Assembly: GCA_017499595.2 (NCBI GenBank)
Contig: CM039009.1
Coordinates: 310,001 to 374,000 of the forward strand
Origin: Psilocybe cubensis
Taxonomy: Eukaryota
DNA length: 64,000 bases
Direction of reading: 5' to 3'
Shown here one piece after another: positions 1 to 41,808 of the stretch. The translations under genes were made by a program, and so were the position numbers. The notes beneath the pieces are model-generated. The model was not told where the DNA came from. It searched no databases and saw nothing but the letters and a program-made list of their open reading frames with translations. The first letter of the stretch is position 1; every line of letters starts with the position of its first letter.

Positions 1-7
1 CACAGAA

Positions 8-1642: not shown

Positions 1643-3177
1643 TGGTCTCTACAGGGTCAAGGTCGTTTTTTGATAATGCCAAATATTGCCATTGCCAATT
1701 TCATGAAGGATATGCATTACATCTAAGACTGATAACTCGCTATTTTCCCAAAACTTCATATGACTTTATGACAGGTGTTATAGTTGTCAAGGATATCAAA
1801 GGGAAGTCTGGATAAACTAGGAAACGTGGTTGCTTGGACCGCATTGACAATTACCAAGTCATAGCATTGACGAACAATAGACGCCCACTGATCACGTGGC
1901 TTGTAGAGTTCTTGAAGAAGTAGGTGTATATTAGTGGTGCAGATTAGCCCGGATAGTCGCCTAATTGTTTCGCAATCACCATTTCGAGTCGCATTGTGGG
2001 GCGCCACAAGTTGGGACTACCCAAAATGGCAGAAATAGAGCATTGTGAGCCTCTCTTTTTGTCTCCATTTTTTGCACATTTCCCGTTTGGGACACCCACT
2101 CCTATGAGCGAAAAACCCGCACGATTGCCACCGATTTTGTTTGACCCAATGTTCCGAGAGATTCCTAATTTGTGCTTTGTGTATAGCCAATGGCGTGAGG
2201 ACCCATCTTTAAGTCTACAGGATTTTGCCGGCACAGGAGTCGACTATTCAGTATCTCGGGAATGTGGACGTTGCGGCTATGCGTGAACAGATATCGCCTA
2301 CATTCTCAGTGCATATGAGTGAAACCACCTCTTCCGAAGATAGGAAGATATATCAAAATATCATAATTGGGTGGGGGGAATATGCATCCTTAAATGTTGC
2401 CGAATCGACTCATTATTGGAATCATTGAATTCATGAGCTTCAAGTATATTGATTTTGCAGTGACAGGCTCATTTAGACGTAACGTATCCTTGAAACGTTC
2501 AATTGTATACTAGTAATAATACCTCTATTATTAAGTTCAAATGCATGTATGCATGGTATACACAGGGATACATTGTCACATAACTGTATATGGCGGAAAC
2601 GAAAGCCAGTGCATCCGATTTTCAAGCATTTTGTGCCATGCCGTAAACATGGTCAGTGTGTAGAATCTGCTTCGCCGGATTAAAATGGAATCCTAGGAGA
2701 TACGTATACCAATTTAACGATACGGCTTCACTCTGCCGACCGTTAAGTCGATGATTTTTCAATAAACCTTGCAGAGATGTCCAAACTAGCTTTGTAGTCC
2801 TCTTCACTTTATATTTAGGGAACTGTTTGTACGCCATTGGTTACTTCCAAGCCACTTTCATGATTCTGAACAGCAATGCCACTACAGCTGTTTTTCTGCA
2901 GCGAACAGTACATCGACGCCATGTCCTTCGACTTTCTAATTGATGTAGACCACGGAGTAAAAATTTTCGAATTGGTAAGTGCCGAAGCTGCCGCTCCGCT
3001 TGAAATAGAAGGCATAGGAAATTTGTAGGATCTTTGTTGACCGTGACATTGGTATAACTCAGAGAAAGAAAAATTCAAATGATCTATTGATGCAATCACA
3101 CATAGTTCACAGGAGCACGCGCATGTTGAACAGCCATATAAGGCCATACAATCCACAAAGCCTTACTCATCTCTTCT

Positions 3178-4635
3178 TTGTGGCAAACCATTACCTTGCC
3201 TACTATCAGACAGACAGGCTTCGGCCCTTGTCCTATGCCAGCAGTCATCGGCGAAGTCATGACTGAAATACCAGTGATCGGCCCTCCAGCCACACTGGCC
3301 ATCAAACCCAACCCTTCTCCCATCTCTCTCATTCCTGTCGAGATTCTTGTAAAGATATTTCGCATCGTAGCGGACACCTACGACTTCGACTGCATCAATT
3401 CGGTGCGGTGGCCGAACTATCGGCCAAGGAGGCACCCGATTCTCGACGTCGTGCGCCGCGTCTGCGTCCGCTGGTTTCACATAGCAGGCTCCGACTCTAC
3501 ATTGTGGACGACTTTATTTCTAGAGCCGACTCTACTGGTATCTGATCCTGGTCGTGTCCTGGCTGGCCAGTCTCTCCGGGCGAAACGGGAGGATAAATGC
3601 ACTGCGTACTCCGGCGACACTCGACCGCTTTCTGTGATAATCAACCCTCACCTGTACTGCTGGAGCAAGGACCAGCCGTTCGTAGCTCTGTCGTTCGTGT
3701 GCTTTTGCGCGGAGATGGCGGTGCAGATCAACCGGTGCATCCAACCCCAACTCAGCTCGCGCATCGGGAGTCTTGCGCTACGGTTCACCCAACGTGATCT
3801 TTTTAAACACTTTGAAAATACAGTGCTTTCCGCTGCTGGCGCCGCGATGCTCGTTAACCTGCACACGCTGTCTATCGTCATCGAGGGTACCGGAGCAAAC
3901 AGGGTCTCTGTTAATATCCACTTGAATGCCATGTTCGCGGAGCTCAACAGCCTTCGACACCTTCACCTGGTTTCACACTACGGCGGATTCGAGGTATCTG
4001 ACACACTAGGTCTACGCCTTCAGACGTTCAAACTCGAGAGAAACGAAATACAATGCTCTGAGGTTATAGCTATTCTAAAATTTATGGAATTTACACAGGC
4101 CATATGTCTAGAAGGACTAAGGCCCACGTATAAAGCCCCCAGGGCCAGTGAGCTGCGCAGAGAACGAATGTCCCGGCCGTGCCTGGAGAAGCTGGTTTTG
4201 AAGGGATGCCACCTCCAAGCAAAGGCGCTGGAATGCTTCTCGCTGCCAAATCTCCGGGTCCTCGAGGTCGAAAACGCGTCTTTGAACCTGTTATATGACA
4301 GGCTCGTTCCGCTGATCGAGCGCTCTGGATGCACACTCACGCATTTGAAGGTGTTCCACTACCAGGAGACACGCGATTGTGACCGGTTACCCGAGATTCT
4401 CCTCGACCGACATATCCGATTTATTGCCAATGTTATCGTTCGATACAAGTTTTATAGGAAAGCGGAGAGGCGAGCGGAACTTCGACGACGCGGTGTTGTA
4501 CGAGACTACTTTGCGGGATTGGATCAGGATCACATGCGACGCGTCGTTTCACCTACTTTTAGCCATGAACTTCGCCGTAGTCTCGATCCTCGCCTCAAGG
4601 ATAATTATATTTTATGGGGAGAGTATGACTCCTAG
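3178..4635 (+). CDS. F-box-like/LRR-like protein
   Basis: 485-aa ORF with PISLIPVEILVKIF...VRRVCVRWFHIAGSDSTLWT F-box signature and LPNLRVLEV/GCTLTHL repeats. The true start is probably ATG 3235 or 3259. Confidence 0.75.
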   Translation: MWQTITLPTIRQTGFGPCPMPAVIGEVMTEIPVIGPPATLAIKPNPSPISLIPVEILVKIFRIVADTYDFDCINSVRWPNYRPRRHPILDVVRRVCVRWFHIAGSDSTLWTTLFLEPTLLVSDPGRVLAGQSLRAKREDKCTAYSGDTRPLSVIINPHLYCWSKDQPFVALSFVCFCAEMAVQINRCIQPQLSSRIGSLALRFTQRDLFKHFENTVLSAAGAAMLVNLHTLSIVIEGTGANRVSVNIHLNAMFAELNSLRHLHLVSHYGGFEVSDTLGLRLQTFKLERNEIQCSEVIAILKFMEFTQAICLEGLRPTYKAPRASELRRERMSRPCLEKLVLKGCHLQAKALECFSLPNLRVLEVENASLNLLYDRLVPLIERSGCTLTHLKVFHYQETRDCDRLPEILLDRHIRFIANVIVRYKFYRKAERRAELRRRGVVRDYFAGLDQDHMRRVVSPTFSHELRRSLDPRLKDNYILWGEYDS

Positions 4636-14814: not shown

Positions 14815-16364
14815 GGTCTTACCCAGGGGTATGGATGAAAACTTTGATGTACGGAATGCTCATCTTATATAATGTCTGTTCTGATCCCGGGCATCACTCC
14901 TCCCACGCTTGCCTTTCAATCCCTCGATCCCTTGTCGCCAACAGCAGTTCATAGAACAAGCATGCTATGCTTCATCAGGCTTCACGGTATTTGAAGCTTG
15001 CGTTTCGCAGCACTTCCGCTGCGTGCTATTTATAACTTTATCTCAGTCGAGAACGGGAGAAGACTACGTTGTGACACTGGTTTCAACATTATTCCTAGTT
15101 AAAGAATCAGTGCGTCAAATTATTAATGGCAGAATGAAAGGATACAGTTTCTCTATGCCAGCCTTCCGTCTTGAAACGTTGTTATCAGAATCAGATTCAC
15201 GAGATACTGCCATTACTTACCAATAGAGTAGGATTGCCAGACGGCTATATAAAGAGATCCAAGTTCCTCAGCCACGTTGCAGCACTCGGCAGATGAGCTG
15301 ATGATCAGGATCGTGATTTGGATGGGCAGAACAAGTTGGGCTTATTTGGGCACTATAACAGATAGAAATGAAAAGACGCTGACCTTCCCTGATACAGTCA
15401 TATTTTGGACTGAAACTATTGGCTCAAAGTGCACCAAAAGTACAGATGCAGACAGACGGAACCGGAAGATGTCAAAATTGGCGGGACAGTCACCGTGCCA
15501 ATGTAGACAAAAATTAGTCCAAGAAGCCCCATGAACGGGCACATCCCGTGGGGGTAGAGACAATACCTAGACATTGCCCTCACAGAAACACGAAAGAGAA
15601 TGGGTGAGACCTTTGATACCATACACCTTATCATGGTATTGAACATGAATAAAATTGCATCCTGGAGGGAGTATGAGTAAACTGGGTCAGAACTGGAAGA
15701 TGGTGGATGCTTTCTAACAACCTATCGAAGTTCAAGCATACCAAGAACAGCTCAGTGAATGGCATGGTCATTGGTTATCGATTTGGGAACCTCAACGATG
15801 GATGTCCAGAAAAGCACTTCTACATCATTCGAGACTGCTGTGAGATGAATCACTAGCCCAAAAAGGTAATTTTGTAGAAACGCGAGAAGGAACCTGAATG
15901 AAGATATTCAGATTGGGCCTCACTGTTTTGGAGAATCGAAGGACCCAACTATGGTGATCTTCCGAATCAGATCACCGTTACTGTGGAGATCATGATTTCA
16001 TGAATGAACGCCTTGAAGCATAACACGGGAATCCGTTAGAGCCGACACATCTCCTGGCAACAAAACAACGTGGAAATAATATAATTGTAATAAATATGGC
16101 ACAAGAGCAAAAATTATCAAAAACATACTTCTACAGAACATGTCCGTTACAGGGATACGAGGATAACTGGCAGAAATAATTCAGAAAGGAGAGGATGGGT
16201 GAAAAAGAGAGGGATTGGCCAGCCAACCGATAAAGGCGCCGCTGGCATGTCGTGTACATCTCACGCAAATTTTTTTGTTTCATGAGCGCGGAATAAGAAA
16301 GGTTGAGCAGCACAAACGAAAGAGAGAGCAGCGTCGGACAACTGAAACAAGAGTTCATACGTTC

Positions 16365-17004
16365 CTACTTCTTGCCAAACAGGCTTTTCTTTTTCTTCTT
16401 TTCCTCATTACTTGCTGAGCTTTTGAGGCTGGCAGAAGAGTCTGTGCGATTTATTTGTGGAGGTGATGTAGCAGATGAAGTAGTAGACGAGTCGGCCCTG
16501 CGGAAAGAGGATGCACCCATGGCCTTTACGATACCACTGCAGTCGTTGCATGTAAGGAAGGTGTAAACAACACGTCAGGAAAAGAAGACGCACCGCTGTG
16601 TCGCATCAACATAGTCCTCCCTCCCAAATCGCTTCGAAGTCTTCACAGAGACACCCGTACTCGACACGTCTAGCCCCTTTGACTTCAATCTGCATCCAGA
16701 CCGCGACGAGTTAGTGTCCGCTCTAGAGAAACATATTGACGCCACTCACGAAGCTTGCGTCGATGATAATCCTTCATTGATAGACTTGACCACGTAGAGT
16801 ATCCCGTATATCACGCCTCCGAATACTGTGATTGTCTAGCATTGTGGGAGAAGTAAGCAGTGGGTTTGGGCTGATGGTATGAACGGAAGCGGGAGCGCAC
16901 CGCGATGAGAGAAAAAAAGTCTACCCTATTAAAAGCTCACGTCAGAGTCGTATCCCCAGCAAAAGTTCGTGCCCAATCACAGAATCCACATACCAACTAG
17001 CCAT
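16365..17004 (-). CDS. Small hypothetical membrane-anchored protein (multi-exon)
   Basis: MASW start then a GTATGT intron. Later exons give TVFGGVIYGILYVVKSI, LKSKGLDVSSTGVSVKTSKRFGREDYVDATQR and GIVKAMGASSF...KKKKSLFGKK*. Confidence 0.6.
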
Positions 17005-17728
17005 AGTTTGAACTATGAATAAGGTTCCAAATTGAAAAGTTGTGGTTGGTCGTACCGTAGCCTGTATGTTTCGGATGGATCGAATAGAAAACGAAAGGAG
17101 GGGTCGAGTTGTCGTGAAGGTTCGATAATAAGATATTACAATGGGAAAGAGGTCCAAAGATTTGCTGATGTTGATGGGCGCGGTCCAAGCTTAAGCGGGC
17201 GGTGTCGTGGATGTAGGCTTGTAGACCGTGGGAATATGTGGCTATGGCTGTGCGCCACCAGTAAAAAGGCGGTGGTATGTTGGAGTTTTCTTCCCCTGCC
17301 CCACCTAGCTTCGGTATTAGTACTCTCGAAATGGCTTGACACGACAAGAGAATAAAAAAGGTAGAAAGGCAGTGTCCTGCTGCCTCTGCATCAGGTTCCT
17401 TTCACCTCTGGTGCTTTTCACGTGAGTCTGGTATTTCTTTTTAAGAAACGGACACGGTTAGGTTAGGTTAGGACGGTGACAACCAGACCCCTGGAGCACT
17501 GATAAACTGGTCCAACGGGTACATATATTGAGCTCTGATATTTAGCACTTCAATAATTTACAACTTGAATAAATTAAAATCTATTCTACTTGTCGCTCTC
17601 GACAATGACTCTTTTGTGGACCTCGATATGTAAACGAGAGATTTGATTTTGGTGCGCTAGTTGCTTTATTTGATCCAAAGAAGCCTGATCTTCTACCACC
17701 TTGTCGATGTGGAAATCAAGGTGAACTC

Positions 17729-18366
17729 TTACATTGTACGGCTGCCAAGTGTTTCCGCAATGTGGCGCAGGTCAAGGTCCTTCGTGCGTCCTTTGTAAAA
17801 AAACACCGACAAGTTTCTGAGAATGCAGGTCTGTCGACTGTCTAGCTTCAGCCTCTTCAGCGTAGCGTTGGAAATGAATGCGTTTGATGAACTTGATCCA
17901 CGGTGCGTCAATCGAAACTCCTCCAAACAATGTCCGCCTATTTTAAGCAAATCCATCAAATCCCCCTCGTTCACATCAAAACACGACAATTTCAGCACTC
18001 TGAGCTTTTGTGCTCTATGGGCTATGAACGCGCCGATGCTGGACATATGGGGACCACTTCCGATTCCAACCCCTAGTGTCAAGTCGAGTGTGTCGAGCGC
18101 TGGGCAGCACATATGGTTTAACAACCATCGGCAGTTTCCAGGGGATCCCAGGTAGGCAGTAAAAGAAGAAAGACGAGTCAAGGTGACTGGGACGTGAACA
18201 AAGGCTGATGCATAAACGCCTGGCTCCTCTGAATTGGTATACACAATTCCTTCCACTTCCGTAAACGTAAACATCTTGACAAATTCCAAGATAGTCTGTT
18301 CGTGTATGGTAGCCTTTCGATATGGCGCTGAGTGACTATGACTATTGACGACAATTACCCGGCCTG
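17729..18366 (-). pseudogene. 3' part of the F-box/LRR gene split by the transposon nest
   Basis: LRR-like segments (CPALDTLDL, LRVLKLS, LEEFRL). Reads in frame with 41275-41808 once the four insertions are removed. Confidence 0.85.
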
Positions 18367-19464
18367 TATGGCTGTCCGTTTGCACATTTAATACCAATCA
18401 TTAATCTTTTTGTCCCATACATATAAAGGACATTTTTACACAATGCGGATTATATATATTGGTGTCCCGATCATAGAGAACTAGCTTCCGAAGATAGAGG
18501 AAATCATCCCAATCATTGTATTTACAGGACCTTCAGCTTTAATGAAAGGTACGGACATATATGCATCTATCCCCTACATAGGAAATCTTATACCATACTT
18601 TGAAACCACCTCCCCATATATCTAACATTTTTTCCGAAGATATAGAGTCGTTGAGATGACCATCTTGCGTGCCGTCACTGCCGAATCCGTGTGGGAATTA
18701 TGTTGGTACCCCGCTTTGGGGTGGATAGCTACTCGTGGAGCAGCTAGGCGAGTGTTTTAAGTTCACAATATGGATTTAAAATTTCACGATTGACAAAAAA
18801 AACACCAAACCTGTGCGTATAGCTGACACTGAATAGATTGACTACCTATAACCTCATTTTCAGGTGTATTTAACCTTAACCAAGCTTAACACATCCGCTA
18901 CTAGCTGTCATCACAGCGCTTGGCTCAGAAAAAACACGAAATAATGCTGTATTCAGCTTACATTGTAGCATTCACAATCGGTTAGTATTTGAAACTTTGT
19001 CAGTGCTTACTCTGCCAGTGTCAAGGTGAAAAAACAGCAATGTGCTGTGATTTGTTTGGCTGATTGCCGATATTTGTCGAATTCGCACGAAGGCAAGCTT
19101 GCCTCGGCATAAAAAAATGCCGAAAATCGCCTGTATATCTTCGGGACGACGACAGGTAAAATCTAAAATTGCCGGAACCAGTAGATATATGTGGGGGAGC
19201 AAAAAATGTATGAAAGGGTATGAGTTTTCTATGTAAGGGATTCTAATATATATATGTGGGCTCCAAAACTATATGTATGGTACTCAAAGTTGTACCTAAG
19301 GTTACAATATACAAATGTGTGGATATGGGATCTTTATGATTGGAAGCAATTTTTCTATCTTCGGACACCATAAGATATACTTATCGGAAGACTTAGTCCA
19401 AGACTTCTAAGTATGGGACATAAAGATTAATGATTGGTATTAAATGTGCAAACGAACAGCCATA
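18367..19464. mobile_element. Non-autonomous TIR element 1, IS3EU-like (1098 bp)
   Basis: ~54-bp near-perfect TIR starting tatggctgtccgtttgcacatttaatacca. 6-bp TSD ggcctg (18361-18366, 19465-19470). TAY..RTA ends with a 6-bp TSD are the described hallmark of IS3EU. Confidence 0.85.
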
Positions 19465-19500
19465 GGCCTGTGGTCTGAATTTGGTGCAACCTTGGTGCAG

Positions 19501-20406
19501 TATGGCTGTCCGTTTGCACATTTAATACCAAAGTATAAACTTCTTTCCCCATACATATAAATCACAATTTTTCTTGAACCCAACTACATACCTTGGTGTC
19601 CCGGTTATAGAGAGATAATTTCCGAGCATAGAGGAAATTATCCCGGTCATTGTATTTGCATGCCCTTCAGTTTGAATGGGAGCTGCACACATAAGGGTAT
19701 GCTATCCATACATAAAAAAACTCAGTACCATAGTTTGTGACCCTCTCCGCATGTACCTCAACTTTTGTCCGAAGATATAGAATGCAATTTTCTGTCTGCA
19801 ACCTCAACTTAGGCCTTTTTAAGCCTTAGCACGGTGACTGGGCTGGTCAAAGCACTCGTCTCAAACTATGAAGACAACCTACTTCTGTAATCAGCCTACA
19901 CAGGAATATATTTACTGATTAATTGGATAAATGTGCATCTTTTTAATGTTCAATCAGCGTGTGTCGATAGGCATACAGGCAATGAACTGTAATTTGTGTC
20001 CACATTTGCCAAGATTTGCCGATTCTCACGATGTCTAGGCATGCACGGCATAGACAGAATGCCGAAAAATGACTATATATCTTCGGGATGAAGAAAGGTA
20101 AGAACAATCATACGGGGAACCTTCAGATATAAGTAAGGCAACAAAATATGTATAAAAGGGAGTGTTTTCTCTATGTAAGGGATTGTAATTTGTATATGTG
20201 GGCACCAAAACTATATGTATGGCACTCAAAGTTGCATCTGAGGATGCAACCTATGAATATATGGATACTGGATTTATATGTTCGGAAACCATCTCTCTAT
20301 ATCCAGGACATCAGAGTGTGTATATGGAATTGTGTAGAATTGAGACTTCTATGTATGGAACAAAAAGTTTATTGATTGGTATTAAATGTGCAAACGGACA
20401 GCCATA
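19501..20406. mobile_element. Non-autonomous TIR element 2, IS3EU-like (906 bp), related to element 1
   Basis: Same 30-bp terminal sequence as element 1. 6-bp TSD gtgcag (19495-19500, 20407-20412). Subterminal regions are diverged homologs of those in element 1, in the same orientation. Confidence 0.85.
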
Positions 20407-20816
20407 GTGCAGAGATGGAAACCCTCAGTTGACCATACTGGTTTATGGCTGCCCAAGTGGGGAAATATTCCCCGTAAATATAATTTGCTTATTTTTGAGA
20501 AGTCCGTCAAGAATAAAAAAAATTGTGCGCGGAAACATTTTTTTGGTGCGCAGATTGCTTTCTGGGGTAGTTTGAAGATTCTGTGAACACAATTTGCTGT
20601 GCGGAAACATATGTCAGACATATATTACAAGCCCGAGTACATTATTTCTACCCCAAATTATACTTCATGTGTAAATTACCTGCACGTAAATACATTTTGT
20701 GCGCTGAACAAACCTTGTAATGCGCGGAAAACATTGTTAATTCTCACCCAAAGTGGCCAGCCGCAATTGCCGTGATTATGTAAATTGATCCATTATGGCA
20801 CTTTGGCACTCTCTCA

Positions 20817-21482
20817 CACTGCGGGCGCCGACCGCTGTAAGTTGAACATACAGCAGTAAACTTACATGTCTTATGTAAGTTTAGGTGTATGTTCAACTTA
20901 CAGCACATGTGTCAGGAAAACAAACATTTAACAAAGACATATTGTGTTTGGTGGCTGTATGCCGACCAAACACAATTACTGTAAGTAGCCTGTAAATAGA
21001 ATAAACACCTAAATTACACAAATTATCTTTGTCCGGTGTTAGTACAACATACACATTTTCTGTAAGTTGTACAAACAGCACTTACTGTAAGTAAAAATTA
21101 CACACAAAGAAAACAATTTGTGTATGTTAGACTTACACAAGTTTTTCAATTCATTTAATGGTGTAAGTATAACATCCAGAAATTGTTTTCTTTGTGTGTA
21201 ATTTTTACTTACAGTAAGTGCTGTTTGTACAACTTACAGAAAATGTGTATGTTGTACTAACACCGGACAAAGACAATTTGTGTAATTTAGGTGTTTATTC
21301 TATTTACAGGCCACTTACAGTAATTGTGTTTGGTCGGCATACAGCCACCAAATACAATATGTCTTTGTTAAATGTTTGTTTTCTCAACACATGTGCTGTA
21401 AGTTGAACATACACCTAAACTTACATAAGACATGTAAGTTTACTGCTGTATGTTCAACTTACAGTGGTCGGCGCCTGCAGTG
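20817..21482. mobile_element. CAC..GTG (CACTA/CMC-type) foldback MITE, 666 bp
   Basis: Ends cactgcgggcgcc / ggcgcctgcagtg. Near-identical ~300-bp inverted arms around a ~60-bp spacer. 4-bp TSD ctca (20813-20816, 21483-21486), confirmed against the uninterrupted opposite TIR of element 3. Confidence 0.85.
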
Positions 21483-22592
21483 CTCATGGAGTTAAAGCTC
21501 CGACTGAAGGCATAACTTAGAGTTGGAATTTCAATACAAGGGTCGTTTTCCTGTACAGCTATTTATGAAGTACTATTGGTCAGTAATTACACTTTTATTC
21601 ATTAATCACTGTCTTATCATGACTTTATAATCTTATTTATACATGCTTAGCTTCACAGACGTGCAATATACAGGCAAAGATGTCTGATTGATCTTTTTCC
21701 CACAATATATGCAGTTTTCATATAGTCCCAGGGCTGTCGGAGATGGTGCACAAGCTGTATCACCAATGGGGAGCTTGTAAAAGCACCAGATGGGTGTCAT
21801 CATATAACACTTAACCCAAAACTTGTTGGTACCTTACCCTACAGAATGGTAATAGCAAGACACTTGTTGCGCAGGACAGTCGGAGCTTTAACTCCATGAG
21901 AGTGTGCCAAAGTGCCATAATGGATCTATGGTGAGTCTAGTCCTGGCGTAGTGGAAGTCACACGCGAAGTTTGGGTGCAAAAATGTAATATTTTTGTCGC
22001 CACATCTCTTTTGCGTGGGGACACCCAGACTGACACGTGAAGTCTCGGCAAGGGTGTGTGCCCAGGCTCAAGCCGGAACAGGTGAGTGTATATACAAAGT
22101 AAACTGAGTAAAAAACGAGAATGAAAAAAACAAGACACAAGCAAAGAAAGAACAAAAAAGAAATGGGAAGTGGTAAGGGTGGGGAAGCAAAAAACAAGCT
22201 CTAGGCAGAGCCTAACGAGCTGTGTGAGTAAGAAGAGAGATATAAAACGAAGTCTAATGAACCTAACGAGCTGTGTGAGTAAGAAGAGAGATGTGAAGAC
22301 ATGAAGAGAAAACGAGATCTATATACAAGCTGGAGAACAAAGGCCTTTGAAAAGCTGCGAGGCGAAATCTAATCTGATCAACGTGCCACACGCAACGCAA
22401 GAGATCCTTCCCTCTCATAGACCCGGATCAAATGAGTTTGATCTCCTCATCTATGGTGAGTCCAGTCCTAGTGTAGTGGAAGTCACACGTGAAGTTTGGG
22501 TGCAAAAATGTAATATTTTTGTTGCCACATCTCTTTCGCGTGGGGACAGCCAGACCGACACGTGAAGTCTCGGCAAGGGTGTGTGCCCAGGC

Positions 22593-23726
22593 TCAAGCCA
22601 CCGGGATAGCCCAGGGGAGAGCCAGCGGATCGGGAACTGGAGAAGGCACAAGGGCCAAATGGAGACAAAAAGAAAGATGGAGTGTGCGGTCTGGAGGGGT
22701 GTCGATGTACAGTTTGTAACAGTCGCTGCGCCAGCGGCCCAAAAGTTGAATCTCAAAATCCGAGTATCCTGCGCAGGCGGCGGAAGTAGCAGCGCCGCAC
22801 CGAAAGCTATGACCCGAATACTTGGACTCATTGACCCCAACAGCAGCCAGGCGGTTTTTAAGGGTGGAAATGAAAACCTGCCGTGACAATAGTGTGCCAG
22901 AAGCATCCGCAAAGAGTGGGGCTGTGGGTGCACGTGGGTCTGCAAGGAATAGTGCTCTAAGAGCTGTCATAGGACACGTAAGAGAGCCGCTAGGCGCCCG
23001 TGCAATGAGTATCGTAACACCAGAACGGAAGGGGTTAGTCTTGGATGCAGGGAGAGTAAGACAGAGGTGGGTAGGGTTATTGATGGAAGGGACAAACTCG
23101 ACGGAGGATCGGGAGAGATGAGTAACAGGGTTGAATTTGGTATTATTTGGGACTGTAAACTCTCCGCAACGCAAGAAACCCGCCCATGTAAGTTTAATAG
23201 CAGCGTCAAAGTTCAAATTGTCGAGGAAGGCAAGGTTTCCAGCAGCAGAGGAGAGTCGCTGAAGAATGCTGAGGGTGATAGGGAGCTTGGGGACACGATG
23301 GTCGCCGTAGACCATTTTGATTCCACGAAAGACGTGCTGTGTAGTGGGCGAAGTAATGCATTTGGGGGAGAGTCCAGCGTCAACATGCAAGGAACGAACA
23401 CCGGACAAGTAGGATTTAATTATTGTATACTTGAGCCCTCTATCTGCAAGGGAGGCCATCCATTCGGCGATGGCAATGGGATTGGCGGGGAGGAATACAC
23501 CGGGCTTTGCTTGGTATTTTGGGTTGAGGGTGACAAAGTCAAGATAACTTTTTTGGGCTGATGAATAGGTTTTGCGAGTGCTGGCAGCGAGGCCGTGCCA
23601 GAGGTAGAACGCGGCTCTACGAGAGAACTCAGAGTGCGCTTTATACCAGTGATCTGGGACTTCATTGATGAGGAGCTTCTTTCGAGTGTCGGCCGCAGAA
23701 GGAAGAGACGGCTGTACTGAAAACAA
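22593..23726 (-). CDS. Tyrosine recombinase of the Ngaro-type element (mutated)
   Basis: Motifs YLSGVRSLH, GFLRCGE, SKTNPF, YSGHSFRCGAAT and IQLLGRWRSDCYKLY. Overlaps the RT/RH ORF at 23420-23726. Confidence 0.9.
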   Translation of the reverse strand: MFSVQPSLPSAADTRKKLLINEVPDHWYKAHSEFSRRAAFYLWHGLAASTRKTYSSAQKSYLDFVTLNPKYQAKPGVFLPANPIAIAEWMASLADRGLKYTIIKSYLSGVRSLHVDAGLSPKCITSPTTQHVFRGIKMVYGDHRVPKLPITLSILQRLSSAAGNLAFLDNLNFDAAIKLTWAGFLRCGEFTVPNNTKFNPVTHLSRSSVEFVPSINNPTHLCLTLPASKTNPFRSGVTILIARAPSGSLTCPMTALRALFLADPRAPTAPLFADASGTLLSRQVFISTLKNRLAAVGVNESKYSGHSFRCGAATSAACAGYSDFEIQLLGRWRSDCYKLYIDTPPDRTLHLSFCLHLALVPSPVPDPLALPWAIPVA

Positions 23727-25528
23727 GAAGCAGCGTCAGCAATAGCATTGGCACTGGTCAGAATCCAGACACAAGAAAAAGAGAAATTTAAGTGTGCCGC
23801 CAACATGAAAATCATCCGCACGGTGGACATAGCGGGAATTGACCGCCCAGTTCCCAAAGAAAGCCATTCCACAATAGCCTCATTGTCGACGTGAAAAATG
23901 ACATGACAACCAAACCAGAGGTCGCCCCAACGGAGGATTGCGTGAAGCACTGCTAAAGCCTCCTTAAATTGAATATCGCGCCCGCGGAAATGACGAGGAC
24001 AGCGAGCAGAAAACCAAAGGTCCTCAAAATGCCCCCCCATACCCTTAGTCCCACTGGCGTCTGTGTAAATAGACACACTAGGGTGGGGCGGTTGCAGAAT
24101 GTGTATGCCGTTCCAAGGCATGCAAAAAACAGTCCACCAGTGCAGGTTGGCTCGCACCCCTCGTGACACATGGCGTTGCTGAAATGGTGAAGAGAATTTC
24201 ATAGAGAAATCGATAATGCGGCGAATAAATGTGCGCGAATAAGGAATGACTTGCGAAGCAAATTGCAGGAATCCTACCAACTCCTGAACTTCCCGAAGTG
24301 TAGCAAGAGTCTTTGTACTCCAAGAGCAAAGTAAGTCGCGGAGAAAGGCAAGTTTGACGGGTGGAAGGCAGGCTTCCATGAGCAATGAGTTGAGTTCAAT
24401 CCCAAGAAATTCAATCAATGTAGACAGCCACATGGTTTTTGCGTCCTGAAACTCCAAGCCAAGACAGCAACCGAGGCCCATGACCCACTCCACCGCCTGA
24501 AGGCATAGCGACCTAGGCATAGAGCTACCAAAATTAAGAAAAAAGTTGTCCAAGTAATGACACAATTGAGCAGGTATATGGCGCTGGATAATCCAGTGTA
24601 GTGCCTCTGCAAAAAGATTGAAAATGTAGGGCGCAGAGCGCAAGCCAAAAGTGAGCACCGTGCAATAGTAGAAAAGACCCTTCCAAGAAAAACCCAAGTG
24701 ATGCCAGTTGGCAGGGCGGATGGGTACATGGCGGAAAGCATCTTTCAAGTCTAATTTTGCCATAAAAGAGCCTGGACCAGAGCGTGTAAGATCTTCCACT
24801 GCGCGCTCAAACATGTCGTAATGGATATGTGCCTCAGAGTCCGCAATGCCGTCATTGATTGAAGATCCCGATGGATAAGACAAGTGATTGATTAATCGGC
24901 GCTTACCAGGGTTGTGTTTCTTGGAGACGGCGCCTAACGGAGAGCAGAAAAAGTCCAGCAGTGGAGGTGTCGGGAACGGGCCGTGAACTTGAGCATTATC
25001 CACCAGCTTAGCAACCGCAGCGTCCATGAAAGCTGAGTCTTCAAATGCGGAGCACAAGTTAGAGCATGAGTGCTCCATGTTGGGCCCGACAAATCCAATA
25101 TCTGCGCCATGCTCAACGATGTTAAGAAGTGACAAGACAAAGGTGCGGTCAGGATAATCATGGAGGAAAAAAGACTAGGATTGCAGCACAAGCGGGGTTG
25201 ACACTCTTGAATGAGAAAAAGAATTATCATAGGAAGACAGTAAATTACAACGTGGATCTGTATTAGGGCGAATAGGTGGGAGGCATGAAGCCGGTGGGAA
25301 AGAATTATGATGAGGAATACAAGAATAAAATTCAGATGAAGTGAAATTGACAGAAGCAGGGGAAAGAAGAGAGCTGGGGTGAGATGATGGTGTTGAATCA
25401 ACAGAATTAAACTTTGAAATAGAAGGAAGATTGGTTTGAGGATGGACTACAGAATGGGAAAGAAGAGGAATAGAAGTAGAGCAAGCCTCCGAATAAAGAT
25501 TAAAAGCAAAGGAAGAAGAAACAGACAA
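23420..25528 (-). pseudogene. Reverse transcriptase/RNase H of the Ngaro-type element
   Basis: KLDLKDAFRH, LTFGLRSAP, YLDN (degenerate YxDD), IYTDASG and HVDN motifs. In-frame stop at 25175-25177 in the N-terminal part. Confidence 0.9.
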
Positions 25529-25552
25529 AGATTGGCTCGCCCCACCGAGTGC

Positions 25553-26722
25553 CTACCCGCTACGTGTGCAATCGGTCTTACCATGATCATCTGCGCCACA
25601 AGATTGGTACTTGTGAAGACGTCCAGCTGGGCAGGGGAGAGTTTTGCAGGTACCAGGATTGAAATTGAAACAGGTTTGCTGCGCCACCGGGGTCTTTGTA
25701 GAGAACAAAGATGATGAACCCAAGGTGCCTGAAGTGCTCGAACGACCTTTAGGCGCCGCCGCTACAGCAGTGCCACGGGCGTGAGGTGTGAGGCAAATGG
25801 CTTGCAGAGCAGCGTTGGATACCATCCACCCAGAGAAATCACCATGTGACATTTCCTTGGATCTGCGCAAAAAGAAACGCTGATGATATGCAAGGACGGC
25901 ATGCCAGTGATATGTTCTACTGAACGTGGTGATTTGTGCACAGTAGTACGCAAAGGCGGAAATTACTTCCCTGGTCGCCAACGCAGACCCGGATGACGCA
26001 GCGTACTGGCCCAAGATATTGAAGTAAACAAAGAGGGGTTCGAGCAAGGACTGCAGCGTAGGATAATCCTTAGCTGTGCCCAAACGGGGCTTCACAGTGA
26101 TGTTGTCGTTTTCAAGTACAATGGAAGACTGCGCATCGTGGACCTTCTTGTGTGCAGACAAGTCCAATTTGTTCAAGTTGAGAGGGTGGAACATGAACTG
26201 GACAATTTCCAGGATGGTGGCACGAGGAACATTGGGGAAAAGATCAAGAAGAGACTCACTGGTAGCAGAGCTCGACGCCGCATTGCTGATGAAAGGCGGG
26301 ATTTGCACCGATGCAGCAACAGGAGCCACAGGCGGGGGTGGAGGGGGCGTTGGAACCTTGACACGAGGCGAGCCAATCAGACCGCGATTGAGCAAAATCT
26401 CAAACTGCTCGTTGGTGAGTATAATCCCCCCTAGGCCTATGCCTGAAGAGGATGGAACACCTTCCCCAGAGTTCAATCTAGACATGCTAGAGCTCAATGA
26501 TGAAAGGGAAGAAGGGGATGATGGTGTAGGAGATGAAAGGGAGACGCTCAGGAGGGCGGTTACAAGACTTGTTTCGTCGTCCATTGACTGAACGGAGGGA
26601 GAAGAGGGGACCGAGTCGGTGTCGCTCTCAGAAGATGAGGACTGAACAGCGAGTGCACCGGTGAGGAAACGGCCGCGAGCGTCTTGAAGACGAGCCGGAA
26701 TGGCTAAAGGAGCAAAAAACAA
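25553..26722 (-). CDS. Gag-like ORF1 of the Ngaro-type element
   Basis: 389-aa ORF with YHWHAVLAYH and a C-terminal CFNFN..C...C...H....C....H....C zinc-finger-like region, typical of DIRS-group ORF1. Confidence 0.75.
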   Translation of the reverse strand: MFFAPLAIPARLQDARGRFLTGALAVQSSSSESDTDSVPSSPSVQSMDDETSLVTALLSVSLSSPTPSSPSSLSSLSSSMSRLNSGEGVPSSSGIGLGGIILTNEQFEILLNRGLIGSPRVKVPTPPPPPPVAPVAASVQIPPFISNAASSSATSESLLDLFPNVPRATILEIVQFMFHPLNLNKLDLSAHKKVHDAQSSIVLENDNITVKPRLGTAKDYPTLQSLLEPLFVYFNILGQYAASSGSALATREVISAFAYYCAQITTFSRTYHWHAVLAYHQRFFLRRSKEMSHGDFSGWMVSNAALQAICLTPHARGTAVAAAPKGRSSTSGTLGSSSLFSTKTPVAQQTCFNFNPGTCKTLPCPAGRLHKYQSCGADDHGKTDCTRSG

Positions 26723-27599
26723 GCTCTAGGCAGAGCCTAACGAGCTGTGTAAGTAAAAAGAGAGATGTAAAACAAAGTCTAACGAACCTAACAAGCTGTG
26801 TGAGTAAGAAGAGAGATGTGAAGACATGAAGAGAAAACGAGATCTATATACGAGCTGGAGAACAAAGGCCTTTGAAAAGCTGCGAGGCAAAATCTAATCT
26901 GATCAACGCGCCGCACGCAACGCGAGAGATTGTTCCATCTCATAGACCCGGATCAAACAAGTTTGATCTCCTCATCAATTTACATAATCACGGCAATTGC
27001 GGCTGGCCACTTTGGGCAAGAATTAACAATGTTTTCCGCCCATTACAAGGTTTGTTCAGCGCACAAAATGTATTTACGCGCAGGTAATTTACACATGAAG
27101 TATAATTTGGGGCAGAAATAATGTACTCGGGCTTGTAAATTATGTCTCAAATATGTTTCCGCGCAGCAAATTGTGTTCACAGAATCTTCAAACTACCCCA
27201 GAAAGCAATCTGCACACCAAACAAATGTTTCCATGCACAACTTTTTTTTATTCTTGACGGACTTCTCAATACTAAGCAAATTATATTTACGGGGAATATT
27301 TCCCCACTTGGGCAGCCATACTGGTTGGCTGCACGGAGTGTTAAGCTGCAAAGTTCGGGAAATTTGCCCAAATTCAGGACCTTTCAGGTAGGCATGCTAC
27401 AATGTTGAATAAGAAATGGATTAGTGGAGCTTACATTGTACTGCATAATGAGGCTTCAATAAATTCATCGAATCATCGAACGCCGAAATTCCCGCAAAGT
27501 CAACTCACAATGTGCCACACTACGTGGGCTCATTGAATACCGGTGTATCTGCACAGTAGGCCAATTTCGGATATGCATCACAGAAAATTGGTATGCGGA

Positions 27600-28060
27600 T
27601 GTGGTTGGGACGTTGAAATGGGTCGGAATCTTCGAATCGGGGTCGGGATAGTGGATATGGTCGGGACGTTGAAATGGGGTCGGAATGAATGGAATGCGGG
27701 GCGTCAGGTTGTTGGAATGCGGGGTTGGGATGAATGGGTTGTCGGCCTATTGGAATTGGGTTGGGATGCTGGAATGCGGGGCGTCGGGTTGTTGGAATTG
27801 GGTCGGTATGTTGGAATGCGGGGCGTCGGGTTGTTGGAATGCGGGGTTGGGATGAATGGGTGTTGGCCTATTGGTATGGGTCGGGATGTTGGAATGCGGG
27901 TCGGGATGTTGGAATGCGGGTCGGGATTGATGCCAGCATCGAAATATTTGAATAGGAGTCGGGGTATTGAAATGGGGTCGGAATGTTGGGTTGGGATGAA
28001 CGGGTTGTCAGGATGTGTTGGCATAAATGGGGTCAGAACTTTGCAACCAGAGGTGGGATA
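27600..28060. repeat. G-rich degenerate minisatellite (ggaatgcgggg / gttggaattggg / gtcgggatg units) in the left subterminal region of the KDZ element
   Basis: Repeated ggaatgcgggg and gggtcggga motifs. The overlapping ORFs are low-complexity artefacts. Confidence 0.8.
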
Positions 28061-28387
28061 TTAAAATACTACTATACTAAATGCCGTCGACGGCTTTTGG
28101 ATTTCAGTTTACCATCTCAAAAGTAGTAGGATCAATGCTATCACACTAGTACATGAGAAAGGAGAAAGCATACAAATGTTATTCAAAAAGTACACAAGCT
28201 GTATTCAAAATATAGAACACATGTATGTACAGATTAGTCAAAAAGATCCAGCTCCAAGTTGCCCGCAAAGTGCTCCGACGTGAATTGTGGTTGAGCAGAA
28301 TCCTCGTCAACGTCCATTGAATAGTCCGATTCTGCAAATGAGTTACTAATAGTCAGAAACTTTTTGAATATGATTTAAGCTAGAATA

Positions 28388-29711
28388 CTACATACCTTCC
28401 GCAGAATCAAAGAAAAGGTTGGCAGCTTCATTGGCTAGGTCCGACGAGGTTGAGCAACTTGACTCATCGTTGGTATCTTGAAGCTCATCAGCAAAGAGCT
28501 CTAATGCCTGATTAATGGCATCCGAGTTAGTTTCGCTGATGTTGGAATTGTTGTCGGTATGCTCTTGAACATTCCCCGACGCCCCAGCCTGTTGGTCTTC
28601 TTCAGCGTCAAAGAGTTTGATCGCAGCCTTGACCATGTTTTTAAGGTTTTCTGTAGAGTTATCGGTACTGAGATTTTCTGCAGAGTTATCGGTACTGCAT
28701 TCGCTGACATTGAAGTCCGCCATCTCTCCGCCACTAGAATCTAAACCTTCTGTCCCCGTTTTGAAGTACCTGGGAAGATCAAGATTGTTAGATGGAGGTG
28801 CCTTGATATCTTTGCGGGACGAAATGGAGTTTGTCGGAAGGGATAAAGTGCGCATTTTTGAATCACTGAGTTCAGATCTTTCGCCCAAGTCTCCGCCATC
28901 TCGAAGACTCTTTACATATCCCGAATGAACTGTTTTTGTGGCGACACCAAGAGTACGAACCTGCAAAACTATGAGACATCACGTCAAATCCACTTCAAAA
29001 ACAATAGCATACCTGCTTGACAGTGAGTTGTGCACCCCAAGTCCACTTGGATGAAGGTGTGTTTGGGGTCGGTTCGGGCTTCGACGGCAATAATTGGGAA
29101 GCTTCGTAGAGCTTGAAAAATCCCGCAGCGCGGCGTGCGATACGGTCAACGCTGTGGCTTGACTGACCCGCGTTGGCCATCAACATGGTTTTAAACCCTT
29201 GTAGCTGGTGAAGTACGTCGTCGGCAAGAAAAGAAAGTCGGGAACATGAGTCGCATGTTGCAGAATTGGCGTTGTTGAGAAGCATGAGAATCGGTTTGAT
29301 TTGAGTCGGAATAACGTTGGAAGGCACCAACGATGTTGGCTGCGATGCCTTGGCCAGATCTTCACGTTCTTTGTCCAGGCATTGCTTCAACTCACCCTCA
29401 TGATACTTCATGATGTCGGGAAGATTGCTTCCATTTAAAATGTCGTTGTCGTCAGAAGGCGGAGTGTTTTTCAACCACCACGCACACATGTACGAGTTGA
29501 CACGTCTGTCGAGGGCAGTACAAGGTGCTCCCGCTGCCAATAAATCAATCATACTTGGGTCGATATCCAGCGGGAGCAATTCTGTTCTAGCAACAGCCAA
29601 TGTATCGCACAGAGAGCGCAGAAGGAGTGGCATTTCGATAACCTGAGATCCTGCGTAGGCGGCACCGATACACGCTAAGACAACATCCTGGTCGGAGTGC
29701 GTGATTTTCAT
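28388..29711 (-). CDS. Hypothetical cargo gene of the KDZ element (multi-exon)
   Basis: ORFs 28995-29711 (ATG start) and 28388-28966 are joined by a GTATG...CAG intron. No recognisable domain. Confidence 0.5.
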
Positions 29712-29799
29712 GTGATAAGTCCGACGATCATGTGATAGAAAAAACTTACTAATTCAATCTGCAGAGTCTCCTGCATCCACTTTTTTTGACGCGCAGTAG

Positions 29800-32700
29800 G
29801 AGCCTTAACAATGTGTTCCAGAATCTCTCGGAATCAAGATGTTGCAAATATAGCAGTTTTTGGATCTATCTGCCCTTCTTCGACCGACGCGCATAATTGT
29901 GGTCAAAAGGATTGAACACAGTGATGACTTTGATGGCTTTGGGGTCTCCTGTACTCATGATGGATGTGGATATGATGGATGTAGATAAGAAAGATGGGTT
30001 TGGATAAGAAAAATGTGTATTTGAAATTACATTGGTTTGTAGAGGGAATTTATCCGCCTAAATAAGTAATCTCCAGCCACCGCCAAGCTATACCAAGCAT
30101 CTGATTTGCAATATGCATATGCTCTCCTACCCGCACTAAGTGTCGGCTCCGACATTGTATATGTTTTCCACTTTTTACTCTGATGTATAAAAAATGCAAC
30201 CGTCTATTGCATTTTGTATCGTACCAGTATTGCCTCTTCTAGCCACCTGTGATATAACGCTCGTGCCCTCAACCAATGTACTCTTTTAACTGTATAGTCG
30301 GGTAGTCGGGTCGGAAATTTATAAGTGCCCGTGATATATCATTAAAATAACTCACATTCAAGCACAGTGGCAGGATCTGCTTCCCCCGATAATGTGTTTG
30401 GGTCGGCATCAGGAGTAGCTGTTGGATCAAGTGCCCACCGCGGTCCGAATCTTTGGTGTACAGAATACCAAATCCATGACAAACGGAATTTGGTTGATCC
30501 CAGCAAATTTGGATTAAGAATTGCAGTACTTGATTTAATGTCTTCTTTTGTTAAAATGCGCAACTCCTGAAGAATTTCATCATTGGCCCCCAACTTGACA
30601 ATACGAGTTCGGCAGTGTGAGTATGCCTGCGCATGCATTGAAATTTGGTCTTTTAACTCTTTTACCGCCGTTTGACCTCGTGTGCGTACCCCTTTGCGTG
30701 GACCCTTTCGGACAACTTCTTTGAACTGGAAAGACCGCTCTGCTATTAGTTCTCGGATCTGGTTAAGGTGACTTCTAGCTTTTGATATTCTGGCTTCAAG
30801 TTCATCTGATGCATAAATTTTGCTTGCAGCACCATTTGATGGTAAGCAGATTGGCTGTAGATCAATATCCTTGTTTACTGTCGGACCCGACCCAGGAGCT
30901 AGAACATCTTCTTCGTCTTCCCAGTCAATTAAAATCTGGTCAGATATGTCAATGTCTTGTCTCCCGGTAGCAACAACACCCGCTTTGGCCTGAAGTTTAT
31001 TGAGTTGAACCATCAATGTTTTGAGGGAGTCTCGTAGCTTTTGAAGCTTAACACGGTCGGTGAGACCATCATGATTGACAAGCCGACGTGCACGCATCCG
31101 TATGTCCAATCTAAAATATTAAAACTTGCATTAGAATAGTTTCACTTAAGATAACTATACATACTGTTTCTCTTCAATCACTAAAGCAAACTGGATCCAT
31201 GATTGTACTGGAGTCAGTGGTGTAGAAGGACAGGCACAGTCACTAGTATTGACTGTTGGAGCGGATCCAGGCCGCTTAGCGGTATAAATGTCCATTAGCT
31301 TTGGGTCTTCCAATCGATTTTTTTCTACATGTTCAATCTGCTATGTCCATAATTTGATGGCTTCAGGATCAGCAGAGTTGGTAAGATTAGAAAAACATAT
31401 CCGATATTTGTCTCTTGTTTCTTCAGCTTCTAGATACCGTTGGCAAAGATACTTGGTTATTCCAAGAGCCTTTTTGTGGTTGGAATCGCATGCATGATCA
31501 TCAAGTATTTCTGCTCAATGAGCTAATGTTGCCGTACGAGCTGCAGGGGATATAGCATTCAAGTCGGCCCACAATGATTCAAGAATCTCTCCGCAGACGC
31601 AGGCGGCACCAGGAATAAATGTTGGAGCATATCAGAAAAAGCACTCATCCTTGTGAGCATGGACATGGAACATACCAATTGCTCTGTCAATTTTGAGTCC
31701 ATTGGGGAGATGGTCCTTAATTCGCTTGAGTAGCCAGATGATATACTAGCAGACAATATCATATATAACCATAGTGCCTTGGTCGGGATGGACACCAGTT
31801 GATGCAAGTGCAGCTAAAAATGCAAAGTCTACATTTTTCTGCTGCTCATCTTTAAAAAGATCAACTAGTGCATTTGGAGCATAGCACCCATGTTGGGCAC
31901 ATGCAATGCCGACAATTCCTGTGACATCGCAAGATGACTTGGACAATAATGAATTTTGAATTGCACGAAATGTATTCTCGCATGGAGCACCCTAGTATTA
32001 GTTAGTTATACTGATTGTCATAGTAGAAAAATGGTTAAACAGACTGTCAATGCCTCAATAGCAGATTTAAGAAATGCATGATACTCTGCGCGGTCGGGTA
32101 TCATGCCACTACCTTCTGAAAGCCAGACATCTCGAGATGGCTTTTCTGAGCAAATATGATCAGCCTTGAAGTTTCCATCAGCCACAAATATCCATTTGTA
32201 AACTCAACGATTTGGGTCTTCTCTCCAATTGTCGGGTAAATTGACTCCAGGTTGTGGGCATGCGGGACAAAAAATTCCAAGGTCTCCTGTTCCAAAAGAC
32301 AGCACAGCCCTCTCATTATGCCCTGCAAACCCCGACCATTTGAGTTTTTTCATCCACCTCCATAGTCGCGACATTCTTCGGAACTCATTGTATAGGTCCA
32401 CAACACTTGAAGGAAACATTGGATTTGTCACTCGTCGGATAAGAGAGTAGAACTGATATGCCGATGCCTTGAGTTCCAGATTGGATAAACAAAAATAGTC
32501 CAGAAGCTGGGCGGAGAAAACTGTACGAATGCGGTGAAAACTTGTTGGCAATAACCGACTTGCAATGAGATCCAGAGGAAGATTGTTGGCTCCATGGCAT
32601 ACACAATAAACCATGGCTAGGTGGTGGACACCATTAGTATGAATTGCCCGAATATAGGCATTATTGAGTCCGTCAGTCTTTGGAGTCCCTGTCGGAATGC

Positions 32701-33728
32701 CTTTGTTTGCCGACTGTGGTCGGAGATATTGAGGCATGTCCCGTACATCTGCCTCTGCTTCGCTTACTTCTTCTTCATCATTACAGTCTTGAATATTGTC
32801 TAATGAATGAGGATCTTCTCGGCACCTGTTTAGGTATGCCTCAAACTCTTCATCTGTAGGGCCATTTGGATCCAAATTCTCTGGGTCTTCCTCAAGATTT
32901 TCCATCTGAATATCAATACCGTTTGTGTATTCTGTTGACTGCTCAATGGGCGCTTGTTTCCATTTCAATTGTTGTAGTTGATTTTGTTCCTCCTCGTCCT
33001 TGGTTTCTTCAATATTTTCAAGATAATTAATCTGGAAGTTCAATGAAGAACATATAGAATCTCCTATATGATGGAGTATAAGGATATAGGTACCAGTCTC
33101 CCATAGCTGAGCCGGCCGGAAGTGTGTGCCTGTCCAACATTCTACTTTGTGCAAAGGATTGACGCGGTGAGTATGCCGCATACACTTTCTGCAAATAAGG
33201 GATGGTAAGCTACAATCCTTGCACCGCCATACCGCAATCAAATTGCTATCACAACTAGAGCAAATAGGAGGTTCAGAATCCTCAGAAATATTGGGTGCTT
33301 CTTGGCTCAGTAATGCCCCTAGTAAATCGTCTACACGCAAAACAAATTCGTTAATATAGTCTCGCTGTGTCTATCCACATCATGCTGGTGAGATTACTTT
33401 GTAAAATAATAAAATATGTTCATACCTTCCAAATTTTTGGCACTACATTTTCATCATGGTGAGTTGAAGGTAGACTGTTTTCATCCTCACTAAATCCAGC
33501 ATCCTCGTTGAATGTACCATGCTCCTGTTCTTCTAAACCTATTGGCTTCTTCTTATGAGGTCAATTTGTGGCACTCAAAGAAACCTTCACTAGCTCTGAA
33601 ACCACCTTTCCTGCTCGCGTGGTTCTGGTTTGATTCTTGTATGTAACAGCATCTGCTGCATTAGCATCATTTTTGTGTAGTGCCTTCTTCCTGGATTTCC
33701 TGTTACTTGATGTTCGTTGAGATGGCAT
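29800..33728 (-). pseudogene. CxC2-domain KDZ (Kyakuja-Dileera-Zisupton) transposase, inactivated
   Basis: CxC2-like C..C..RCKDC..C..C..H..PLH..WTG and HTNGVH..YCVC motifs. KDZ core: CPACPQPG, FVADGNFK, GIACAQHGC, YDIVC, FHVHAH, GEILESLW. Several in-frame stops; 3' end approximate. Confidence 0.88.
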
Positions 33729-40868: not shown

Positions 40869-41274
40869 CCCGCACCCACACCCAAACCCGAACTCGCACC
40901 CGCACTCGCACCCGCACCCAAACCCGAACTCGCACCCACACCCCACCCGCACCCACTCGGACTTGCACCCGCTCGCACTTGCACCCGCATCTGCACTAAC
41001 ACCCACACCAAGTCAAACTTCTGCTCCTCCGACACTGTGCAAATTCCACTAAGTTGAACATTTATTGATACACCCGACCCGCCCATGTGACGGGTACTAG
41101 ACCTCTCCATATTCAAGAATTGCGCAAAGTATAGTACAATGTAAACTACTGTGTATAGTTATGTGATATTCAGTGTATGAATGAATTTATTGAATCCATA
41201 TTATACGATACATTATACCAGTCCACTGTACCATGTTATACAGTACTATGTAGTGTTAGTATGTGGACCTTTGC

Positions 41275-41808
41275 GCTGCAGTTGTGGGCGAGGACAGGGG
41301 AGAAATGAATGTCAAGCTTCTGCCAACGCGCACTGTACTTTTGGATAAAGTCGCATATTGCAATGTGTTCCAGAGACTCTTCAGGCTCGCTTGAAGCCAC
41401 CAGTGAGTCTCTCTCCTTGATTTTCAAGGTGAGAGGTAGGTTTACTGCTCTTTTCACCCAATTCTCCAAGAATTCGATGTGCCGTGTCTTCTCTGTGTCG
41501 GACTTGGATACGGATATGTAGACTGTTGTCCAAAATTGGGAGTTGTTGAGTATAATTTCACGCCAATTCCTACAAACGAGTGCAAGATCCAGCAGTGTGT
41601 GTAGTTCTGCGAATATCGGGGGAAACGGATCCTCGAGGGATATACTATTCTCCAAAGCCAGGAGAAATATATTAATCCAAATTTCAGTAGGAATGGTCCT
41701 CACTAGCTTGATGCTTTTAGCGGAAGGCGTCATATACGGAAGACGGCCGCCGCAACCTGAAGGTACAGAGGTTTTCCTCTGCTTGGGCCCACCCAGTTTC
41801 GCTGTCAT
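41275..41808 (-). pseudogene. 5' part (F-box domain) of the gene split by the transposon nest
   Basis: IPTEIWINIFLLA...LALVCRNWREIILNNSQFWT F-box motif plus WVKRAVNLPLTL. Continues in frame at 27344. Confidence 0.85.

Follow-up and report, generated by a model that had tools for sequence, protein, structure and literature searches.

Three independently inserted IS3EU-like transposons clustered within 61 bp of one open reading frame in Psilocybe cubensis

Background

Why should three different transposons come to lie side by side, at almost equal distances, in a single open reading frame? This question is raised by a locus of the fungus Psilocybe cubensis that lies within a stretch of 64,000 nucleotides (GenBank assembly GCA_017499595.2, contig CM039009.1, positions 310,001 to 374,000 of the forward strand), which was analysed at its full length and is referred to here as the window; all coordinates are those of the window. 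The three transposons, here numbered elements 1 to 3 from left to right, bear the marks of IS3EU, a little-studied superfamily of eukaryotic transposons. The initial annotation of this DNA had described them as independent insertions of one group and had read their near-constant offset as the work of a transposase that is guided by the end of a resident element and integrates at a fixed distance from it. Here we delimit the elements, compare the locus with other public runs, and weigh the processes that might have brought three insertions together.

Delimitation and independence of the insertions

Every TAYGG of the window was paired with every CCRTA (95 x 105 candidate ends), and each pair was required to have an exact target-site duplication (TSD) of 6 bp and at least 14 matches in 20 positions of the terminal inverted repeats (TIRs). 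Over the whole window this procedure returned precisely elements 1, 2 and 3 and no further pair (Table 1). Exact direct repeats of 6 bp flank all three elements, and TATGG or CCATA is read at all six of their ends. An 11-nucleotide end motif, allowing at most one mismatch, occurs nine times in the window against an expectation of 1.74, a number reached in none of 100 shuffles, and six of these nine occurrences are the ends of the three elements. The others, at 3128, 17243 and 22544, have one mismatch each and no partner end that bears a TSD, and were set aside as chance matches or relics. When the empty site is rebuilt, the TSDs start at offsets 94, 124 and 155, that is, 30 and 31 bp apart. 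The side-by-side arrangement, the TSDs, the gaps of 36 and 37 bp and the 30- and 31-bp offsets were thus recorded correctly at the outset. The right limit of the cluster was not: the range given, which closes at 20460, takes in only the first 17 bases of element 3, whose right end and TSD are found at 27310-27326, the element itself ending at 27320.

When each element is deleted together with one copy of its TSD, a single minus-strand frame becomes open over 251 codons, and in it both host spacers stay in frame with their neighbours. As wrong boundaries would not be expected to restore one such frame, we take the boundaries of the elements to be right.

To place the insertions in a wider setting, four public runs (X1, X6, X10 and X12, the last consisting of raw reads of 151 nucleotides from a related strain) were compared with positions 17300-20810. 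The run X1 contains a contig that is identical to the window flank over 6401 nucleotides, with no differences, and that breaks off after the first three bases of element 1. The other three runs all contain the exact empty sites of elements 1 and 2. In X6 and in X10 one contig of unique depth leaves out 1104 bases at element 1 and 912 bases at element 2, in both cases the length of the element plus 6, and X12 has exact empty sites in 16 reads for element 1 and in 15 reads for element 2; the joint left in place of element 2, 19494->20407 (912 = 906 + 6), is found in X6, X10 and X12 alike. Single-nucleotide polymorphisms at half frequency in the flank of X12 point to two haplotypes in that strain. 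The unique-depth contigs of X6 and X10 (2253 and 2168 nucleotides) extend more than 1100 nucleotides past 20443, and element 3 is therefore very probably absent from these runs too, the stretch compared ending at 20810, short of its right flank.

Because each element has its own perfect TSD that differs from the other two, because one frame is restored upon their removal, and because other runs have the sites of elements 1 and 2 in their empty state, the three insertions are independent, recent and polymorphic; on the point of independence the initial annotation is borne out. We considered and rejected a tandem duplication or a recombination product as their source, since both the TSDs and the spacers differ, the spacers are consecutive parts of one frame, and identity between elements 1 and 2 is no higher than 70% overall. 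The locus offers a clean and dated case of three polymorphic insertions that break one frame, and it can serve to mark recent activity of IS3EU in the fungus.

Table 1. Components of the insertion cluster in window coordinates, followed by junctions between element ends in the reads of run X12
Feature	Coordinates	Strand	Description
Host frame, downstream part	17732..18366	-	joins the two spacers and 27327-27383 in the 251-codon frame
TSD of element 1, left copy	18361..18366	.	GGCCTG; empty-site joint 18360->19465 skips 1104 = 1098 + 6
Element 1	18367..19464	+	1098 bp; fits a non-autonomous IS3EU-type element; ends TATGGCTGTCC..GAACAGCCATA; 60-nt arms, 93% complementary
Host spacer 1	19465..19500	.	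36 bp; GGCCTG 19465-19470 + 24 host bases + GTGCAG 19495-19500
Element 2	19501..20406	+	906 bp; fits a non-autonomous IS3EU-type element; GTGCAG TSD at 19495-19500 and 20407-20412
Host spacer 2	20407..20443	.	37 bp; TSD copy 20407-20412 + 25 host bases + CTGGTT 20438-20443
Element 3	20444..27320	.	6877 bp including nested cargo; foldback-type, IS3EU-like
Nested element in element 3	20784..21929	.	bounded by 33-nt inverted repeats
Nested retroelement in element 3	21924..26979	-	about 5 kb; split direct repeats and reverse transcriptase frame 23420-25174
TSD of element 3, right copy	27321..27326	.	CTGGTT; left copy 20438-20443
Host frame, upstream part	27327..27383	-	part of the restored open reading frame
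X12 junction	20406->19501		element-2-type end, one base, element-2-type start; 15 reads
X12 junction	20444<->20444		two element-3-type ends abutted; 15 reads
X12 junction	18367<->20444		element-1-type end abutting element-3-type end; 10 reads
X12 junction	18374<->19501		intact end joined to a point 7 nt within another end; 8 reads
X12 junction			two ends with 19 bp between; 3 + 2 reads
X12 nested junctions (three)			end into the interior of another element; 3, 3 and 13 reads

Assignment to IS3EU and make-up of the elements

In the portions available to us of two surveys, the IS3EU families are described as having TA..TA termini and usually a TSD of 6 bp (PMC10045372), and the fungal IS3EU families as having TIRs of more than 30 bp and ends of the form TAYGG..CCRTA (PMC12730594). 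The elements of the window agree with this published signature in TSD length, in termini and in TIR length, so that three of the four features that define IS3EU and GingerRoot elements are found here: a TSD of 6 bp, TA..TA or TAYGG..CCRTA termini, and TIRs longer than about 30 bp. On these sequence features elements 1 to 3 fit IS3EU-type, non-autonomous transposons, in line with the superfamily named in the initial annotation. They further resemble GingerRoot in their GC-rich target hexamers, as far as the accessible part of the GingerRoot paper goes (PMC6839031). The fourth is a DDE transposase of the IS3EU clade with matching ends, which the element encodes or by which it is mobilised. Unlike those IS3EU and GingerRoot elements that have such a transposase, the elements of the window, which belong to unnamed families, are without one, and no match to a transposase catalytic domain, rve-type or other, was obtained among the 32 window frames of at least 150 codons. 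The sole transposon-associated domain match in those searches for DNA transposons was to the CxC2 cluster of KDZ transposons, downstream of the insertions. Neither additional matching ends nor an autonomous element were found in the 64-kb window, and scans of metagenomes with the end of element 3 (22 nucleotides) and with the common end of elements 1 and 2 (22 nucleotides with one Y) returned 0 loci each.

Elements 1 and 2 point the same way, have their first 31 nucleotides in common, and are linked by the direct repeats D1, D2, D8 and D10 in a repeat comparison; the reading frames inside them are all short. In element 1 the TIR is a 60-nucleotide arm at 93%, and in element 2 by 31 identical nucleotides followed by partial identity. 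Element 3 has a TIR of 79 nucleotides at 97% within arms of 346 nucleotides (20444-20789 and 26974-27320) that are 95-97% complementary. Between these arms lie two nested insertions. The first of them contains a near-perfect palindrome of 666 bp (20817-21482), the arms of which are 322 nucleotides long and 97% complementary. The second is a retroelement with three long frames, of 380, 584 and 390 codons; RVT_1 is matched by the middle one (E 1.6e-10). Its split direct repeats pair 22186-22454 with 26711-26979 (269 nucleotides, 94%) and 21924-22074 with 22449-22599 (151 nucleotides, 95%). It looks young, and its layout resembles that of DIRS/Ngaro-type elements. No Rfam family reached its gathering score in 16000-29000.

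The reads of X12 add a further observation on the end of element 3. Most element-3-type copies in that run match only the first 35 nucleotides (20444-20478) and then continue into a different sequence that they share (395 reads, agreement 0.94), and one contig of X10 likewise diverges after 35 nucleotides of an element-3-type end. A commoner sister family, possibly the autonomous one, thus uses the same end as element 3.

The interrupted frame and the target site

The restored host frame contains no Pfam family, and no homologue of it was found among longer proteins, those of 371-2000 amino acids. We also tried the possibility that the frame is a paralogue of the F-box-like frames of the window and rejected it, as four of these paralogue frames gave no match to the rebuilt empty locus in tblastn at E 1e-3. 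A seed resembling the element ends within the target was likewise rejected: in the empty site of 261 bp the first 14 nucleotides of either end type find at best 9/14 and 8/14 matches, which were equalled by 1313 and 1979 of 2000 shuffles. By eye we saw no 30-bp periodic repeat in the target and no motif common to the three insertion sites. A search of protein collections with an 80-codon frame that spans the end of element 3, the spacer and the end of element 2 gave no candidate for an array junction.

Two features of the surroundings deserve separate mention. The five host bases that precede the left TSD copy of element 3 (in 20431-20443) read CCATA, like an IS3EU right end; this is probably a chance resemblance, as the broader search of the target for sequences resembling an element end was negative. 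About 300 bp from the cluster, at 27620-27927, lies a G-rich minisatellite with a unit of 20 bp in about 15 copies, which was also scored with periods of 42 and 122 bp and which could mark a fragile or recombination-prone spot.

Clustering and its possible causes

Are three insertions within 61 bp more than chance would bring? In X12 the depth is about 34 on the flank and about 300-800 inside the elements (at 90% likeness), which corresponds to tens of copies per family. With 30-1000 copies spread over 45 Mb, one would expect 2e-8 to 9e-4 triples within 61 bp per genome, and at most 0.09 even when 1000 copies are confined to a tenth of the genome. Scanning many windows will, of course, yield rare configurations, and to that extent a coincidence of three random insertions has something in its favour; given the low copy number and the tiny expected count, however, the triple is not to be put down to chance, and we hold pure coincidence to be extremely improbable. 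A linked donor from which the elements could have hopped locally is not visible either, since the window has no further copy of these types, although one might lie beyond its ends.

The reads of X12 also allowed a view of how element ends meet at other loci (Table 1). Among the junctions listed (12 of 14 rows for letters between two ends, and 15 of 38 joints), ends are abutted, separated by one base or by 19 bp, or joined 7 nucleotides inside another end, and no case has 30-37 bp between two ends, a spacing that reads of 151 nucleotides are long enough to show, as they can span a spacer of 36 bp. The abutted and 1-bp junctions occur at roughly single-locus read counts (8-15 reads against the flank depth of about 34). 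In the junction between an element-1-type and an element-3-type end the shorter side stops at 35 nucleotides, where the abundant sister family diverges. In X6 a single contig connects an element-2-type end to an element-3-type start. Taken together, these junctions suggest that IS3EU ends lie within or beside other IS3EU elements more often than expected, at distances that vary. Those with 0-1 bp could be tandem dimers, insertions at the tips of elements, or circle junctions like those of bacterial IS3/IS30.

The explanation that we tentatively favour, while giving it a little under an even chance, is serial integration in which resident IS3EU copies draw newcomers to themselves, at distances that vary. 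Three non-autonomous IS3EU-type transposons of different kinds would have entered the same 61 bp of a single open reading frame in turn, each by the ordinary staggered cut of 6 bp and in the lineage of the window assembly. An IS3EU transposase that recognises the common TATGGCTG-type ends would be drawn to DNA already holding such an end, and after the first landing later elements would integrate within a few helical turns. The distance would be variable, inside an end, abutting it or tens of base pairs off, with no fixed ruler, and the equality of the 30- and 31-bp intervals would be a coincidence or a loose steric or helical-phase preference. The distribution over the runs has the pattern of contagion, with a window haplotype that carries three insertions and with X6, X10 and X12 empty for elements 1 and 2; an empty site elsewhere and three insertions here are more what contagion, or a burst confined to one lineage, would leave behind than what a constant hotspot would.

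Several points weigh against this explanation. Tolerance of insertions, or open chromatin, likewise gives rise to clustered and nested transposons. Recognition of the ends by the enzyme is an assumption, there being no transposase or autonomous element in the window. The absence of element 3 elsewhere is read from the extension of contigs and was not observed as a joint. Intermediate alleles, with one element or with two, did not turn up in any of the four runs. The X12 junctions come from a different strain and from unmapped loci, and the number of these loci is estimated from read counts; moreover, where two ends of one family abut, a tandem dimer or a circle junction, and not a choice of target, could be the cause.

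If attraction is set aside, the site itself may have drawn the insertions. A hotspot intrinsic to the site, be it open chromatin, a hotspot of recombination or breakage, or GC-rich bendable DNA, that was hit independently three times is a serious though rather unlikely alternative. The TSDs have a G+C content of 4/6, 4/6 and 3/6, and the related GingerRoot elements are reported, in the same partial source, to prefer GC-rich targets (PMC6839031); new insertions of the IS3EU-related Styx are described near recombination breakpoints in the section of the Styx paper that we had (PMC10853768), and the minisatellite described above is close by. The three sites nevertheless have no visible motif in common, and the site is empty in all three of the other runs even though those genomes carry all three element types. 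A hotspot would also leave unexplained the junctions at, or 7 nucleotides inside, element ends at other loci.

The regular spacing, for its part, could be taken as the signature of a true molecular ruler: a transposase complex seated on a resident end would direct each new integration to a point about 30 bp, or three helical turns, off, and a phased array would result. Elements 1 and 2 do lie head to tail, and the intervals of 30 and 31 bp amount to 2.86 and 2.95 turns of 10.5 bp; for a cluster 40-100 bp wide, two intervals would agree within 1 bp with p = 0.03-0.08, and in about 5% of random pairs of intervals each lies no more than 1 bp from a multiple of 10.5. A further argument comes from the TSDs of IS481EU and IS1202, which in the portion seen are given as about 4-6, 15 and 25 bp, in steps of about one helical turn (PMC10045372): enzymes of this clade would then reach target phosphates one or two turns apart, which makes a loose helical preference conceivable. 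The intervals are just two, however, and were chosen after being seen, and the X12 junctions listed for other loci lack this spacing; as the sparse evidence from outside the window, they tell against one fixed distance. Neither side-by-side clustering, end-proximal targeting nor fixed spacing of this sort is mentioned in the non-exhaustive selection of IS3EU, GingerRoot and Styx literature that was consulted. The ruler of about 30 bp put forward in the initial annotation is therefore unsupported, and we regard it as quite unlikely. Regular spacing near whole helical turns would also follow from one concerted event, in which several donors held in one higher-order transposase assembly were integrated together on the same face of the helix, and the lack of intermediate alleles agrees with it, the runs showing either the occupied state (the window, and X1 at its left junction) or, for elements 1 and 2, the empty one. 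Among only four runs, however, missing intermediates mean little, and the two nested insertions of element 3, absent from elements 1 and 2, speak for a different age unless that element moved with its cargo. We know of no precedent for concerted integration of multiple donors, and consider it very improbable.

Relation to known systems

Returning to attraction by resident copies, the closest parallels are bacterial: IS30 and IS911 have been documented, in the part of the review that was available, to insert beside inverted repeats of their own (PMC9333248). The X12 junctions of 0-1 bp resemble the IR-IR junctions (IR, inverted repeat) that are described there as forming beside a resident inverted repeat (PMC9333248), and in elements 1 and 2 it is a right end that faces a left end, the sole orientation reported for IS30 in what we saw of this literature. 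In contrast to the products of IS30 and IS911, the elements of the window each have a full TSD of 6 bp and are separated by host spacers of 36-37 bp, as ordinary integrations in a eukaryotic host and not as single-strand transfers onto the tip of an inverted repeat. Direct joining at the tip of a resident inverted repeat with no separate TSD on that side, by which targeting of this kind is recognised, is not seen in the window array. A bolder form of the idea, which we think possible but doubtful, is that the IS3EU transposase homes to the resident ends of several families as IS30 and IS911 do, and that arrays grow by contagion. They would do so both through abutted junctions, possibly active IR-IR junctions of a copy-out-paste-in cycle, and through ordinary integrations a few turns away, with 30/31 bp as the preferred outer position of the complex.

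Among eukaryotic transposons, homing and local transposition of the P element and linked transposition of Ac/Ds also lead new copies to favour sites in or near existing ones. Those cases involve the same family and a linked donor, whereas here three different families are concerned and no other copy is present in 64 kb. Integration phased by helical turns or nucleosomes is known for retroviral integrases and for Ty1 upstream of Pol III genes; the spacing at our locus resembles it in lying near whole turns, and the transposase clade is related to integrases, the likeness being limited to two intervals. If attraction by resident ends is true, it would tie eukaryotic IS3EU mechanistically to its bacterial IS3/IS30 relatives, and it would explain local IS3EU arrays and provide a signature to be sought genome-wide.

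Genomic neighbourhood

Just downstream of the insertion cluster, at 28388-33370 on the minus strand, lies a series of long frames, one of which (32204-33370) has the CxC2 cysteine cluster associated with KDZ transposases; this is probably another DNA transposon. Farther off, the segments 2-4635, 41236-44444 and 52085-57302 of the window contain several F-box-like frames, a pair of frames with TPR_10 and CHAT, and a DUF6535 frame. Gene content of this kind, with DUF6535 and CxC2/KDZ, is what we take to be agaricomycete-like.

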